From positions 1 to 40,933 of the forward strand of contig CAZKKX010000003.1 of the NCBI GenBank assembly GCA_964553505.1: DNA of 40,933 bases, in the 5' to 3' direction. Origin of the DNA: an uncultured Eubacteriales bacterium (GTDB lineage: Bacteria > Bacillota > Clostridia > Peptostreptococcales > JAAYPU01). The notes under the pieces are model-generated. The model did no database searches, was not told the origin of the DNA, and worked only from the letters and a program-made list of their open reading frames with translations. Of this stretch, positions 5,035 through 40,607 are shown piece by piece. How positions within the stretch are numbered: position 1 is the stretch's first letter; every line of letters begins with the position of its first letter. The position numbers and the translations under genes are program-made.

Positions 5035-5224
5035 AGATAAACAGATAATAGATAATGGTTAAGGAAAGTTTTACAAGGCAAAACTAATAATAAGCGGAGA
5101 ATGAGATATACATAGTAGTAATTATGACAATCCGTAAAATATAATCTATAATCCATAAACCATAATCCATAATCTATAATCCATAAACCATAATCCATAA
5201 TCTATAATCCATAATCTATAAACT
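5035..5224. repeat. Heptamer-arm element, copy 1: short left arm (AGATAAT x2), degenerate core hairpin AGTTTT-ACAAGGC-AAAACT (5067-5085), right array of 12 x ATAA(T/A)C(C/T) (5141-5224)
   Basis: Read directly: ataatct ataatcc ataaacc ataatcc ataatct ataatcc ataaacc ataatcc ataatct ataatcc ataatct ataaact. Confidence 0.85.
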
Positions 5225-5237
5225 AATAAAAGGATGA

Positions 5238-5768
5238 ATGTCATTGAAACGGTATCTTCTTATCGATGGATATAATATAATAAACGCTTGGCCGGTATTG
5301 AAGGAGTTTGCAAAAAATTCATTAGAAGATGCACGAGATCAATTGATTCAGATGCTTGTAGACTATAAAGCTTTTACAGATCAAAATATTTGGGTTATTT
5401 TTGATGCACATCAGGTAAAGGGCGGAGATAACAGAAAAATGAATGTAAAAGGCATTCATATTGTTTATACTAAAGAAAATCAAACGGCAGATTCATTTAT
5501 CGAAGTAAAAACCTCTGAGTTGACTAAAAAAAGATTTAATGAAGTAAGAGTTGCAACTTCAGATTGGGCGGAGCAGCAGGTAGTGATGGGGAGTGGAGCA
5601 TCTCGACTTTCTGCGAGGGAACTCCTCATTGAAATTGAAGATAATACCAAGAGAATTGTTAAAAAAACTGAGACAATAAATAGTTCCAGATATTTTTTAA
5701 GTGACAGAATCGATAAAAAAATCGTAAAAAAGTTAGAGGAATGGAGAAAGGAGAAGAATAATCGTTGA
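5238..5768 (+). CDS. rae1: NYN-domain ribonuclease, YacP/Rae1 family
   Basis: LLIDGYNII, VIFDAH, TADSFIE, VATSD NYN_YacP motifs; between rlmB and sigH; the start may be TTG at 5244. Confidence 0.9.
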   Translation: MSLKRYLLIDGYNIINAWPVLKEFAKNSLEDARDQLIQMLVDYKAFTDQNIWVIFDAHQVKGGDNRKMNVKGIHIVYTKENQTADSFIEVKTSELTKKRFNEVRVATSDWAEQQVVMGSGASRLSARELLIEIEDNTKRIVKKTETINSSRYFLSDRIDKKIVKKLEEWRKEKNNR

Positions 5769-5793
5769 CGATTATAAAGCCTTAAGGTATAAT
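5765..5793 (+). promoter_or_regulatory. SigA-type promoter for sigH
   Basis: TTGACG(5765-5770)-17 nt-TATAAT(5788-5793); the -35 box overlaps the rae1 stop codon. Confidence 0.75.
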
Positions 5794-5887
5794 AAATATA
5801 CTTATTGCAATGGGTTTGAGTGTTTTTAACAAATTTCGACAAAATGTATAAAATTGAATAATGGCGAGATTTTCAGGAGGGATGAGG

Positions 5888-6538
5888 GTGGATCAAACGG
5901 TACCATTTGTAAGAGACGAATTAATCGATTATGCCGAATTTAAAGATGAAGAGATTGTTAGATTTGCAAGGCAGGGAAATGTTTACGCAGAAGAATCACT
6001 GATTCAGAAATATAAAAAATTTGTTAAAAACAAAGCAAAAGCATATTTTCTAATAGGGGCGGACAGAGAAGATATTATTCAGGAAGGAATGATCGGACTT
6101 TTCAAAGCCATAAGAGATTTTGACGAATCCAAACTGGCAACCTTCAAGGCCTTTGCTGAAATGTGTATTACCCGGCAAATAATTACGGCAATAAAAAGTG
6201 CCACACGTCAAAAACATATTCCTTTAAATTCATATGTATCGTTAAGCAAACCCATTTACGAAGAAAATTCCGAGAGAACCTTGATGGACATGCTTTCGTC
6301 AGAGAAGGTAACAGACCCTGAAACCATTATTGTTTTCAAGGAGGAGATTGATTACATAGAATCAAAAGTTGCCGGTTCTTTAAGCAAATTGGAGTGGAAG
6401 GTCCTGAGAGAATATTTGTTGGGCAAATCTTATCAGGAGATTGCTGAGAATATGGACAAGCCCATAAAATCCATTGATAATGCATTGCAACGTGTTAAAA
6501 GAAAACTCGAAGCCTATGTGGAGAATCGCAGATACTAA
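5888..6538 (+). CDS. sigH: RNA polymerase sigma-H factor
   Basis: YFLIGADREDIIQEGMIGLFKAIRD, RQKHIPLNSYVSL, KSIDNALQRVKRKL; GTG at 5888 is 7 nt after GGAGG (ORF track starts at 5861). Confidence 0.95.
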   Translation: MDQTVPFVRDELIDYAEFKDEEIVRFARQGNVYAEESLIQKYKKFVKNKAKAYFLIGADREDIIQEGMIGLFKAIRDFDESKLATFKAFAEMCITRQIITAIKSATRQKHIPLNSYVSLSKPIYEENSERTLMDMLSSEKVTDPETIIVFKEEIDYIESKVAGSLSKLEWKVLREYLLGKSYQEIAENMDKPIKSIDNALQRVKRKLEAYVENRRY

Positions 6539-6591
6539 AATATACCTTATAATTTATTAAACATACCATGATGGGCAGTATATATTTATTG

Positions 6592-6620
6592 TTGACAGGA
6601 CCTGTTGTTAATAGTACAAT
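6592..6620 (+). promoter_or_regulatory. SigA-type promoter for tRNA-Thr-tuf
   Basis: TTGACA(6592-6597)-17 nt-TACAAT(6615-6620). Confidence 0.75.
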
Positions 6621-6696
6621 AAGTAGCGATAAATATACAGATTTCTGGCTTTTTGAAGCCGTTTTTTATGTGCAAAAAGCCGGATTAAGAATAAAT

Positions 6697-6773
6697 GCCC
6701 ATGTGGCTCAGTAGGTTAGAGCGTCGCCTTGGTAAGGCGGAGATCGGCGGTTCGAATCCGCTCATGGGCTCCA
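6697..6773 (+). tRNA. tRNA-Thr(GGT)
   Basis: Cloverleaf: acceptor GCCCATG/CATGGGC, D-stem GCTC/GAGC, anticodon loop TTGGTAA (GGT at 6731-6733), T-loop TTCGAAT, encoded CCA. Confidence 0.95.
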
Positions 6774-6825
6774 ATTAAATAAATATTATATTTTTTTCAT
6801 TTGTTTTGCTAAGGAGGATTAAAAA

Positions 6826-37927: not shown

Positions 37928-37940
37928 AGGAGGCAAATAG

Positions 37941-38345
37941 ATGGTAGCAAAAGCAACAAAAAAGACAACAACACGGAGAAAAAGACGTGAGAGAAAAAAC
38001 ATTGAACGCGGCCAGGCTCACATTCAATCGACCTTTAACAATACAATTGTAACCCTTACTGATATTGCCGGGAATGCCATATCATGGTCTACGGCAGGTG
38101 CTTTAGGCTTCAGGGGATCAAGAAAATCTACTCCCTTTGCTGCACAGATGGCAGCGGAAGAAGCTGCTAAAGCTGCAATGGATCATGGGTTAAAAACGGT
38201 TGAAGTATATGTAAAGGGACCAGGATCGGGAAGAGAGGCTGCTATTAGAGCACTTCAGACTGCAGGATTAGAAATTAGTCTTATTAAAGATATAACACCG
38301 ATTCCTCATAATGGTTGCAGACCGCCGAAAAGACGAAGAGTATAA
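37941..38345 (+). CDS. rpsK: 30S ribosomal protein S11
   Basis: [32 protein letters not shown]. Confidence 0.98.
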
Positions 38346-38369
38346 TAATATATTGGGAGGTGTAGTGAG

Positions 38370-38990
38370 ATGGCAAGATATACAGGACCTTCCTGCAGAT
38401 TGTGCAGACGAGAAGGGCAAAAACTGTTTTTAAAAGGTGAGAGATGCTACAGCACTAAATGTGCTATAGATAAAAGAAATTATGCACCAGGACAACATGG
38501 ACAGGGAAGAAAAAAAATATCTGATTATGGATTGCAGCTTAGAGAAAAACAAAAAGCTAAGAGATTCTATGGGGTCTTGGAAACTCAATTCAGACAGTAT
38601 TTCAACAAGGCTGCGAGAAAACCCGGAATTACAGGTGAAAACTTACTTGTAATGCTGGAAACAAGATTGGATAATGTTGTTTTTAGAATGGGACTCGCTT
38701 TTTCAAGAAAAGAAGCACGACAGCTTATAATGCATGGACATTTTACAGTTAACGGTAAGAAAGTAAATATACCGTCTCTTAATGTATCCGAGGGAGATGT
38801 CATAAAAGTAAAAGAAAGCAGCGTAAACTCTCCTAAGTTTAAGGAAGTCAGAGAAGCGGCAGTTAATGCTCCGGGATGGGTATCAGTAGACTTTGAGAAA
38901 CTTGAAGGAAAAATCCTCAACTATCCGACACGCGAGGATATCGATATACCTATTGAGGAACATCTCATTGTTGAGTTATACTCTAAATAG
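38370..38990 (+). CDS. rpsD: 30S ribosomal protein S4 (Cys-rich N-terminus)
   Basis: [39 protein letters not shown]. Confidence 0.98.
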
Positions 38991-39067
38991 TAGTTTCCAT
39001 TAAAGAAGCTAATTATTTGAGGGAGTTATACCCCCAGATTCCAAAAAAATAAAAGGAGGGTTTGGGT

Positions 39068-40015
39068 ATGATAGAGATAGAAAAACCCACCATTGAATGT
39101 GTAGAATTAAGTGAAGATAACACTTACGGAAAATTTGTAGTAGAGCCTCTTGAGCGAGGTTATGGCACAACTCTTGGAAACAGTTTGCGAAGAATTTTGC
39201 TTTCTTCTTTACCCGGAAGTGCGGTAACATCTATAAAAATTAATGGGGTTCTACATGAGTTTTCTACAATTCCTTCTGTTAAAGAAGACGTTTCAGAAAT
39301 TATTTTAAACTTGAAAAATCTTGCAGTTAAGTTAGACAATGAGGGACCAAGAACCGTTATGATAGATGCCGAAGGTCCTGGTGAAGTGACTGCTGCAGAA
39401 ATTATTACGGATCCAGACTTGGAAATTCTAAATCCGGAGTTACACATTGCCACTTTAGAAGAAGGGGCAAAACTGGTCATGGAAATCAATATTTCGAGAG
39501 GAAGAGGCTACGTACCGGCAGAGCAGAATAAAACAGAAGAAATGCCTATTGGCGTAATACCCGTCGATTCCATCTATTCCCCTGTAACAAAAGTGAATTA
39601 TGTTGTGGAGAATACCAGGGTCGGACAAGTTACGGATTTTGATAAACTTACTCTTGAAATATGGACAGATGGAAGTATTAAACCGGATGAAGGAGCATCT
39701 CTTGGTGCTAAAATCATGCTGGAACATCTCAATTTATTTATTGAACTAACTGAAAATTTTGATCAGGTAGAAATAATGGTTGAGAAGGAAGAAGACCAAA
39801 AAGAAAAAGTGCTTGAAATGACCATAGAGGAGCTTGAACTTTCGGTTAGATCCTTTAATTGCTTAAAGCGTGCGGGAATCAATACGGTTGAAGAGCTTAC
39901 TCATAAAACAGAAGAAGATATGATGAAAGTAAGAAATTTAGGAAAAAAATCTCTTGATGAAGTAAAGAATAAACTATCTGAACTTGGTTTAGGACTTAAA
40001 CCAAGCGATGAATAA
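39068..40015 (+). CDS. rpoA: RNA polymerase alpha subunit
   Basis: [41 protein letters not shown] at 39068 fits the SD. Confidence 0.99.
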
Positions 40016-40036
40016 TTCAGCAAAGGAGGGAATAAG

Positions 40037-40378
40037 ATGCCAGAGCAAAGGAAATTAGGCAGACCTACTTCTCATAGAAACCTCATGCTTAGAAATCTTG
40101 TGACGGATCTTTTAAGAGAAGGTCGAATCAAGACAACGGATACAAGAGCTAAAGAAACAAAAAAGATAGCTGAAAAAATGATTACTTTAGCTAAAAAGGG
40201 AGACTTGCATTCCAGAAGGCAAGTGCTTTCATATGTTACCGATGAGTCGGTAGTGAAGCATCTTTTTGATGATGTAGCACCTAAATATACCGAGAGGCAC
40301 GGTGGTTATACCAGAATCCTTAAGATTGGCCCTCGAAGAGGAGATGCTGCTGAAATGGTATATTTGGAATTAGTATAA
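40037..40378 (+). CDS. rplQ: 50S ribosomal protein L17
   Basis: [32 protein letters not shown]. Confidence 0.98.
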
Positions 40379-40410
40379 AAAAAAATCGGCTTTGACCGAT
40401 TTTTTTTATA
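40374..40410. terminator. Intrinsic, potentially bidirectional terminator after rplQ
   Basis: A-run-TCGG-ctttga-CCGA-T-run. Confidence 0.8.
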
Positions 40411-40486
40411 CCTTTTTAACAATCTAATATTCTTTAAATTTGTACGCGAAAAATGTATAATGGGTAAGAGGTAAGAGGCAGTAATA

Positions 40487-40607
40487 AGATTATGGATTAT
40501 AGATTATGGATTATGGAGTATGGATTATAGATTATGGATTATGGAAATTTTGCTTCACGAGTAGGAGCGCTCATTGGGCGACAAACAAAGATTACGCTTG
40601 CAAAACT
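40487..40607. repeat. Heptamer-arm element, copy 4: 8 x RGAKTAT left arm, then TTTTGCTTCAC...GCAAAACT core interrupted by a GTAG palindrome; no right arm
   Basis: agattat ggattat agattat ggattat ggagtat ggattat agattat ggattat (40487-40542); core 40548-40607. Confidence 0.85.

Follow-up and report, generated by a model that had tools for sequence, protein, structure and literature searches.

We describe a family of small intergenic repeats that lies among the ribosomal-protein operons of an uncultured Eubacteriales bacterium and is represented by four copies in contig CAZKKX010000003.1. "The window" denotes the whole stretch of DNA analyzed here, 40,933 nucleotides (nt) with a G+C content of 0.38 and all genes on the plus strand. 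The copies (1 to 4 in what follows) occupy the rlmB-yacP, nusG-rplK and L7Ae-rpsL spacers and the region after rplQ. The family is real, its members are related, and it is clade-restricted: palindromic heptamer arrays surround a small hairpin and change by whole units. We regard it as belonging among the small intergenic palindromic and tandem repeat families, that is, as consisting primarily of genomic repeats and not of dedicated regulators. Read from its sequence patterns, it would be a lineage-restricted palindromic family of the REP/STRR kind, evolving by slippage and inter-copy exchange; our confidence in this fuller reading is evenly balanced.

Related loci were taken from a species-representative genome collection. 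The closest locus (L001) is from a metagenome-assembled genome (MAG) labeled Anaerovorax odorimutans, with 87% L10 identity to the window; Anaerovorax belongs to the Peptostreptococcales, family Anaerovoracaceae. The next two relatives, L002 and L003, have L10 identities of 81% and 77%, and all other loci are at 59% or below.

Heptamer arrays, cores and their changes

A preliminary description of the window, made from the letters alone, had placed heptamer arrays in the four spacers, and these positions were borne out by Tandem Repeats Finder (TRF). Six period-7 arrays reach the score threshold of 40, all of them in the four spacers, versus none in 100 dinucleotide-preserving shuffles of the whole window, in which the highest score was 35. 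Besides the arrays listed in Table 1, the window has just one more period-7 row, a poor run of GAAAAAA inside coding sequence (36925-36953, score 30). The same spacers have the highest identity between positions i and i+7 (0.54, 0.50, 0.41 and 0.39) among the 24 stretches of at least 40 nt between listed plus-strand open reading frames (ORFs); the other 20 stretches range from 0.19 to 0.34. Right arms had been described in three of the four copies, and copy 4 was indeed found without one.

A full member of the family is a T-tract/A-tract hairpin located between two convergent arrays of related heptamers, and in most copies the T-tract follows a purine linker that ends in GG. Arm composition was counted over 24 arrays from the window, L001, L002 and two more distant loci, L005 and L006. 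There are 3 C in 334 nt of 5' arms and 1 G in 469 nt of 3' arms, i.e., a C-free/G-free design. With the 3' arms reverse-complemented, the 13 distinct units follow a single theme more closely than do random heptamers of matched composition (mean best match 5.0 versus 4.33, P ~0.002, for a reference unit that was chosen post hoc), and AGAT occurs in 6 of the 13 units versus 1.3 expected. Since the 5' arms are C-free, the 3' arms are G-free and the units follow one theme, the design is an imperfect DNA palindrome; the elements are imperfect palindromes of convergent arrays, reading alike on both strands. This result changes the earlier picture in two respects. The 7-nt period persists as described, and the polarity tells nothing about the strand: the arrangement of purine arm, palindromic core and pyrimidine arm is its own reverse complement, and polarity as an orientation relative to transcription was rejected on this ground. 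The arms of one copy do differ in their heptamers, but their relation is not random, since their unit themes are roughly reverse-complementary.

Of the 16 candidate cores, which are 17-24 nt long and lie between the arrays, 15 form a hairpin of T-tract and A-tract. As for the hairpins proposed earlier in the window, those of copies 2 and 3 are significant and that of copy 1 is weak, while copy 4 has no convincing hairpin. In a covariance-model alignment of 12 plus-strand cores 67 of 84 cells pair, although the alignment is fitted to the model and so leans towards structure. Next to the T-tract, four cores have a G-C pair and six an A-T pair, and both outer positions alternate between these two kinds of pair. 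Covariation in the stem, which had been suggested as a check, is seen in the outer pairs, in a small, model-fitted sample that includes orthologues.

Comparisons between sister genomes reveal how the arrays change. The nusG-rplK spacers of the window and L001 are 92% identical, with a 7-nt gap inside an array, and the L7Ae-rpsL spacers differ by a 14-nt gap in the right array. In the latter spacer the left arm is made of a different heptamer in the two genomes while the flanks are almost identical, i.e., the whole arm is replaced. The rlmB-yacP spacers are separated by gaps of 12, 3 and 50 columns, the right array of copy 1 being about 50 nt longer; the layout of the L001 orthologue is otherwise alike. 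The remodeling of arms proposed in the preliminary description is thus found as differences of whole heptamer units (gaps of 7 and 14 nt) between sister genomes.

Sequence is also common to non-orthologous copies. The array of copy 4 and the right array of copy 1 are identical at 56 of 58 positions, in inverted orientation, and both have a 28-nt higher-order unit. Positions 40516-40554 of copy 4 match 36 of 39 positions of the dfr-rlmB spacer of L001 (L001:3313-3351), a match that runs across arm, linker and half of the core, and copy 4 has an exact 17-mer junction in common with L001, in opposite orientation. The left arm of copy 1 matches the left arm of the L001 L7Ae-rpsL element at 35 of 39 positions. 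These sequence patterns indicate length change by units, homogenization within arms and transfer of arm sequence between copies. Together with the common architecture and the consensus of linker and core, the near-identical segments at non-orthologous sites agree with the original view of the copies as one family.

Distribution in relatives and alternative explanations

The element is present at all three orthologous spacers covered in L001 (arrays and core at rlmB-yacP, nusG-rplK and L7Ae-rpsL) and at both of those covered in L002. The dfr-rlmB spacer of L001 has an extra 294-nt composite with two cores (L001:3293-3586). In L002, the nusG-rplK spacer contains two elements with other units and another core, and the L7Ae-rpsL spacer contains a nested pair, the outer arms of which are perfectly complementary ATTTAAG/CTTAAAT arrays (duplex -42.7 kcal/mol). 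The nusG-rplK spacer of L003 is 52 nt long and has no element, compared to 222-241 nt in the other genomes, and its L7Ae-rpsL spacer has only a hairpin with a stem extended by a single unit, and no arrays. A series from a proto-form (L003) to an expanded form (L002) is possible for the L7Ae-rpsL spacer.

In 28 more distant loci examined, no arrays were found in the nusG-rplK or rpsL-upstream spacers; absence of the arms from these sites in distant relatives had been one of the checks proposed at the outset, and it came out in favor of the family. A covariance model of the core yielded a best match of 21.2 bits (E 1.5) in 31 distant loci (423,408 nt), and no convincing copy beyond its training set in the window and L001-L003. 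The linker-plus-T-tract motif was rejected as a finder of copies: it has 60 matches in 511,027 nt, mostly unrelated. The low-scoring period-7 rows of the distant loci L010 and L033 are A/T-rich runs. Two Bacillota MAGs with approximately 58% L10 identity have heptamer arrays of the AATCTYC type: that of L005 (215-330) lies directly before a ribosome-binding site, after a G+C-rich hairpin and a purine-rich left flank, and that of L006 (6750-6790) lies directly before a -35 box. These arrays may be independent occurrences of the same design. The family is restricted to the closest lineage (L001, L002), and L003 and the 31 more distant loci are mostly without it.

An alternative that we regard as unlikely is that the elements are cis-acting hairpins of the sense RNA. 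The arms would pair around the core in the operon transcript and form a long imperfect stem, which would be cut by a double-strand RNase such as RNase III or would block exonucleases, and would set the relative stability or translation of the flanking cistrons, as in the 5' untranslated region (UTR) of Haemophilus influenzae hmw. All copies lie in spacers that are necessarily transcribed with, or just ahead of, highly expressed genes, and in 7 of 11 elements the 3' array abuts the ribosome-binding site. There is also a precedent, because the transcribed (ATCTTTC)n array of hmw is one arm of a 5'-UTR hairpin processed by RNase III, according to the accessible text of PMC12721329. The folding results are divided. 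Whole elements are clearly palindromic on whichever strand folds better, with z <=-2.5 versus mononucleotide shuffles in 9 of 11 cases, and a fold of -69.9 kcal/mol (z -9.2) was obtained for the L7Ae-rpsL element of L002. The whole-spacer sense fold of copy 2 is one long hairpin (-25.7 kcal/mol, z -3.28, none of 200 shuffles as good); for copies 1, 3 and 4, shuffled sequences do equally well (z -0.28, -0.56 and +0.92). The antisense strand is favored by over 5 kcal/mol in 5 of 11 elements, including all three full window copies, in which the sense-strand mismatches are A-C and not G-U; the sense strand is better by the same margin in three, all of L002, and the remaining three are within 2.5 kcal/mol. 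Selection on sense-strand RNA structure is hence not consistently supported, the sense fold being significant for copy 2 only. It should also be noted that the flanking genes are housekeeping genes and not phase-variable. Because sense folding is inconsistent and cognate arms are not specially matched, we read the symmetry as a property of the DNA and not as evidence of sense-RNA selection.

Non-autonomous mobility, with the hairpin and sub-terminal repeats recognized in trans by a single-strand transposase of the HUH/RAYT type or a reverse transcriptase encoded elsewhere and copied into new intergenic sites, is decidedly improbable. Two spacers are polymorphic in a manner that would suit it (dfr-rlmB, 47 nt in the window versus 294 nt in L001, and nusG-rplK, 52 nt in L003 versus 222-241 nt), near-identical segments occur at non-orthologous sites in both orientations, and there are nested or composite copies (L001:3293-3586 and L002:11490-11722). 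However, neither polymorphic spacer has a target-site duplication or a clean insertion boundary (window 4244-4290 versus L001:3293-3586 at dfr-rlmB, and L003 at nusG-rplK), so neither of them bears out, in the strict sense, the mobile element of the preliminary description. The window dfr-rlmB spacer may even be a deletion remnant and not a never-occupied site, because of its core-like word. The ends of the elements are not fixed, and the segments in common are mostly arrays, which are exchangeable by homologous recombination. A scan of 59 window ORFs revealed no transposase, in agreement with the earlier remark on the absence of a mobilizing gene, and plasmid and phage collections yielded no match for copy 4 or copy 2 with the BLAST low-complexity filter on, which may hide repeats. 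Finally, most copies are at the same sites in sister species, which argues for vertical inheritance of most copies.

The positions of the elements bear on a further alternative. Elements occupy their spacers from the upstream stop codon on, with copy 3 overlapping the stop codon, and 7 of 11 3' arrays end 6-25 nt before the start codon. In four cases the array is directly followed by a promoter-like site. Three of the four belong to the orthologous L7Ae-rpsL spacer, for which the site was scanned in the window and judged by the conserved -10 region in the relatives; the fourth, L006, was assigned by eye. Such positions fit expansion up to a constrained site and would also fit a role near the ribosome-binding site. 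The arrays could be binding sites, in DNA or RNA, for a protein reading one heptamer per subunit. In one version, the G-free 3' arm is an unstructured ribosome standby site, or a site for S1 or a cold-shock protein, upstream of the ribosome-binding site; in another, it is a C-rich, G-poor loading site for Rho. This explanation is consistent with the common theme of the units, with G-free 3' arms that so often end close to start codons, and with the A-C mismatches in the window, which weaken sense-RNA pairing and would leave the 3' arm single-stranded. Moreover, the arrays of L005 and L006 are in the same two positions (ribosome-binding site and -35 box), and post-transcriptional binding has been suggested, in the accessible text of PMC4679880, by its author for TAACTGA repeats within several nucleotides of start codons. 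The unit, however, varies greatly between copies and is replaced wholesale at one orthologous site with unchanged flanks, which is a poor fit with a sequence-specific reader, and the number of copies per array ranges from 2 to 12. We therefore consider dedicated binding sites very improbable.

Four unrelated microsatellites located by chance near ordinary small hairpins are scarcely credible: heptanucleotides are reportedly the commonest long simple repeats in many bacterial genomes (PMC4679880, in its accessible text, relaying Mrazek et al. 2007) and hairpins of a T-tract with an A-tract abound in this AT-rich DNA (422 loose matches in ~511 kb, both strands), but the three-part layout recurs at no fewer than six sites in three genomes, with a common linker and core consensus and strictly C-free/G-free arms, and the sequence common to different sites (56/58, 36/39 and the exact 17-mer) already contradicts chance.

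Several points also weigh against a lineage-restricted repeat family evolving by slippage and exchange. The evidence base is one 41-kb window plus ~47 kb from three relatives, drawn entirely from the surroundings of the same operons. Covariation counts are low (about 6 sites), since orthologous copies cannot be taken as independent. Cognate arm duplexes average -16.4 kcal/mol (11 pairs) versus -14.4 kcal/mol for non-cognate ones (110 pairs), and the cognate pair is the best in its row for only 1 of 11 elements; co-evolution of the arms within one copy was dropped, as cognate arms are no more complementary than non-cognate ones, and neither selection for within-copy arm pairing nor its generation is demonstrated. 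Positions near start codons and promoters could reflect function and not passive filling. In addition, a change in heptamer number can depend on RNA folding and RNase III and not on simple polymerase slippage, as is argued for hmw of H. influenzae (PMC12721329); here, the case for slippage and gene conversion is drawn from sequence patterns only.

Individual copies and their surroundings in the window

The coordinates of the copies and of related sites are listed in Table 1.

Table 1. Coordinates of the four copies, their parts and related sites in the window; copy numbers and scores of arrays are from TRF
Feature	Position	Description
dfr-rlmB spacer	4244..4290	47 nt, no arrays, short core-like word; L001 counterpart is a 294-nt composite
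Copy 1, rlmB-yacP spacer	5035..5226	final repeat array stops 16 nt short of yacP start codon 5238
Copy 1 left arm	5035-5058	about 3 units only
Copy 1 purine linker	5059-5065	
Copy 1 core hairpin	5066-5084	weak; -1.8 kcal/mol, z -1.0
Copy 1 non-repeat middle	5085-5140	56 nt, separates core from right array
Copy 1 right array	5141-5221	ATAATCY, 11.6 copies, score 120; 28-nt higher-order unit
Degenerate core-like hairpin	9262..9294	-1.8 kcal/mol; preceded by two purine-rich 7-mers; weak family membership
Copy 2, nusG-rplK spacer	9356..9457	stops 16 nt short of rplK start codon 9474
Copy 2 left array	9360-9379	TTAAGAA, 2.9 copies, score 40; followed by linker
Copy 2 core hairpin	9390-9411	9 bp, -10.1 kcal/mol, z -3.9
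Copy 2 right array	9419-9457	AATCTTA-type; TRF array 9419-9450, 4.6 copies, score 57
Copy 3, L7Ae-like gene to rpsL spacer	19809..19915	
Copy 3 left array	19814-19840	TTAAGAD, 3.9 copies, score 40; overlaps stop codon 19815-19817; followed by linker
Copy 3 core hairpin	19850-19868	7 bp, -9.3 kcal/mol, z -3.1
Copy 3 right array	19884-19913	CTAACCT, 4.3 copies, score 53; abuts promoter-like site
Copy 4, after rplQ terminator	40463..40560	half element
Copy 4 first array	40463-40478	GGTAAGA, 2.3 copies, score 32
Copy 4 junction common to L001	40474-40490	exact 17-mer; exact 16-mer at 40475-40490
Copy 4 main array	40488-40545	GATTATG, 8.3 copies, score 95
Copy 4 linker and 5' half of core	40546-40558	

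The genes of the window run, in order, from cysE, cysS, a Mini-III-type RNase gene, thyA, dfr, rlmB, yacP, sigH, a tRNA gene and tuf, through secE, nusG, rplK, rplA, rplJ, rplL, rpoB, rpoC, an L7Ae-like gene, rpsL, rpsG, fusA and a second tuf, to the S10/spc/alpha operons ending in rplQ, followed by an ORF of the SatD family. The genes downstream of copies 1-4 are yacP, rplK, rpsL and the SatD-family gene. The flanking gene names given in the preliminary description (rlmB, nusG, rplK, L7Ae-like, rpsL and rplQ) agree with NCBIfam; the ORF called "rae1" there is a neighbor of the spacer as stated, but by Pfam it is a NYN_YacP protein. At gathering scores, Rfam detects in the window only an L10 leader, tRNA and an S10-Clostridia leader, none within the four spacers, and in E-value mode the four spacers have only sub-threshold matches to eukaryotic microRNA or small nucleolar RNA hairpins. 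No terminator-like site, defined as a G+C-rich stem followed by a T run, was found in the three operon spacers.

At the left arm of copy 1 there is a promoter-like TTGACA-16-GATAAT (5029-5056), which scores 11/12; a conserved promoter was rejected because 12 extra bases separate the two hexamers in L001. The upstream half of the nusG-rplK spacer contains the degenerate hairpin of Table 1, which is conserved in L001, where the covariance-model search scores its counterpart at only 15.7 bits (E 4.8, minus strand) and leaves the window stretch unscored. The surrounding upstream 100 nt of this spacer (9245-9345) are nearly identical in L001 and absent from L003, with no Rfam match and no plus-strand promoter-like site.

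Copy 3 stands beside a promoter-like TTTATA-18-TATAAT (19913-19942), the -10 region of which is conserved in all four related species compared. The listed rpsL ORF begins at GTG 19966; the relatives and the NCBIfam match (residues 5-141) suggest that the real start is the ATG four codons downstream (19966-19980).

The rplQ terminator (40378-40407) is upstream of, and separate from, copy 4. The long-range TTTTGC...GCAAAA pairing proposed for this copy is no better than shuffles (z -0.34); in L001:3336-3367, the homologue closest to it, a local hairpin takes the corresponding position. Copy 4 thus consists of a left arm and half of a core. Between copy 4 and the SatD-family ORF (40612-40690), a word of ~12 nt, AAAACATCACAA, occurs twice as a direct repeat and has an inverted partner. 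The AAAACATCACAA repeat overlaps a promoter-like site with a TG-extended -10 and looks like an operator.

Several other observations were made in the window. The Mini-III-type gene (1995-2426, downstream of cysS) encodes a 143-aa protein with a single Ribonuclease III domain; thyA and dfr separate it from rlmB-yacP-sigH, which places a gene for a double-strand RNase near the long-hairpin elements. The two tuf genes (6826-8019 and 23101-24294) are of equal length (397 aa) and have minus-strand shadow ORFs at equal offsets, suggesting near-identical duplicates that are kept alike. A 115-aa ORF (36725-37072), located between the methionine aminopeptidase gene and infA, has no Pfam family at E <=1e-12. 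A GTGGGAG...ACCAC motif is found in the rplK-rplA spacer (9900-9953) and also upstream of rplK in distant loci (the nusG-rplK spacers of L016-L025, L033 and L034); by eye, it resembles a ribosomal-protein leader that is placed differently among lineages.

Known repeat families, mechanism and significance

The nearest design known to us is that of the cyanobacterial SDR/STRR repeats. In 2008, Elhai et al. (Genome Res 18:1484; mentioned in PMC5861425) reportedly described heptamer arrays (STRR) with embedded, hairpin-forming small dispersed repeats (SDR) of ~20 nt, as well as nested copies of the SDR/STRR complex; the SDR (about 21-27 nt) are said to have compensatory changes in the stem and to occur in Nostocaceae. 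To our knowledge, no transposase is associated with them. The window elements are similar by this description, being intergenic tandem heptamer arrays with a 17-24-nt hairpin core in between; the likeness is one of design, and the host is an Anaerovoracaceae-like member of the Clostridia, in another phylum. They are therefore at most an analogue of STRR/SDR and not a member. In addition, the mirror-image (C-free/G-free) arms of the window elements make the whole unit a palindrome, which may set them apart from SDR contexts.

REP/BIME elements of Enterobacteria and pseudomonads are single conserved palindromes of ~20-40 nt, with hundreds per genome and a cognate RAYT transposase; often they separate genes of the same operon, their distribution is limited to certain clades, and they are believed to influence mRNA stability. 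The elements described here are likewise short imperfect palindromes in operon spacers and clade-restricted, but unlike in REP their arms are variable tandem heptamer arrays, and no cognate HUH/RAYT gene was found among the 59 window ORFs scanned.

Other systems are similar in single features. In hmw, an array of (ATCTTTC)n between promoter and start codon is one arm of a long imperfect RNA hairpin, the unit number changes, the other arm is a G-rich non-repeat and cleavage by RNase III was shown, all at a single locus of a phase-variable adhesin, as far as the accessible text of PMC12721329 reports. The window elements have a tandem heptamer array with a similar T/C-rich unit; they differ in being found, from sequence alone, at several loci before housekeeping genes, with arrays in both arms and a conserved tip hairpin. 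In marine Beggiatoaceae, some Cyanobacteria and Bacteroidetes, direct repeats of TAACTGA form arrays shortly before start codons, among others in front of ribosomal protein genes, and are clade-patchy (PMC4679880, accessible text). Short tandem heptamer arrays just before start codons and patchiness among clades are features of our family as well; TAACTGA, however, is one fixed heptamer genome-wide in direct repeats, with no central hairpin or inverted second arm described in the accessible text of PMC4679880. The miniature inverted-repeat transposable elements (MITEs) with internal minisatellites of Porphyromonas gingivalis (PMC4596501) and the staphylococcal STAR repeats (PMC3532100) similarly combine, in the accessible parts of these papers, a dispersed intergenic unit with strain-variable tandem repetition; the former have terminal inverted repeats and target duplications and the latter are direct repeats, according to the same parts, and neither was found here. 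Full-text literature searches yielded no description of such elements in Clostridia or Anaerovoracaceae.

If the elements are a slippage- and exchange-driven repeat family, the arrays would have arisen when replication slippage, in steps of 7 nt, lengthened the extended stem of a hairpin that was already there, and each arm would then have been homogenized separately. Arms would be overwritten or exchanged between copies by gene conversion or another copy-and-paste process acting on the common repeats, and arrays would expand until they meet a constrained site, presumably the stop codon on the left and the Shine-Dalgarno sequence or a promoter on the right. The elements would be carried in operon transcripts and may be able to fold into long imperfect hairpins there. 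There is a slim chance that they are instead a clostridial counterpart of SDR/STRR, a mini-hairpin actively copied to new intergenic sites via an RNA or single-stranded DNA intermediate, with arms set by a process that depends on RNA structure or an enzyme, of the kind hinted at for hmw, and not by passive slippage. If this were true, the heptamer-array-plus-hairpin would be a recurrent, mechanistically defined kind of very small mobile DNA in unrelated phyla.

Small intergenic repeat families such as REP/BIME and STRR/SDR are common, and their origin and spread are mostly unexplained. The family described here is unusually easy to read: the tip hairpin is conserved, the heptamer arrays mirror each other and vary by whole units, and a single orthologous spacer spans a bare hairpin (L003), perfectly complementary arrays (L002) and arms swapped for other units (the window and L001). 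Because the elements lie inside the most conserved and most highly expressed operons, effects on mRNA processing and translation would be easy to measure, and the flanks are conserved enough for amplification and comparison across strains. In these genomes, assembly errors and length polymorphism are likely to be concentrated in the arrays. If there are many genomic copies, the heptamer-array-plus-hairpin design would extend beyond cyanobacteria.

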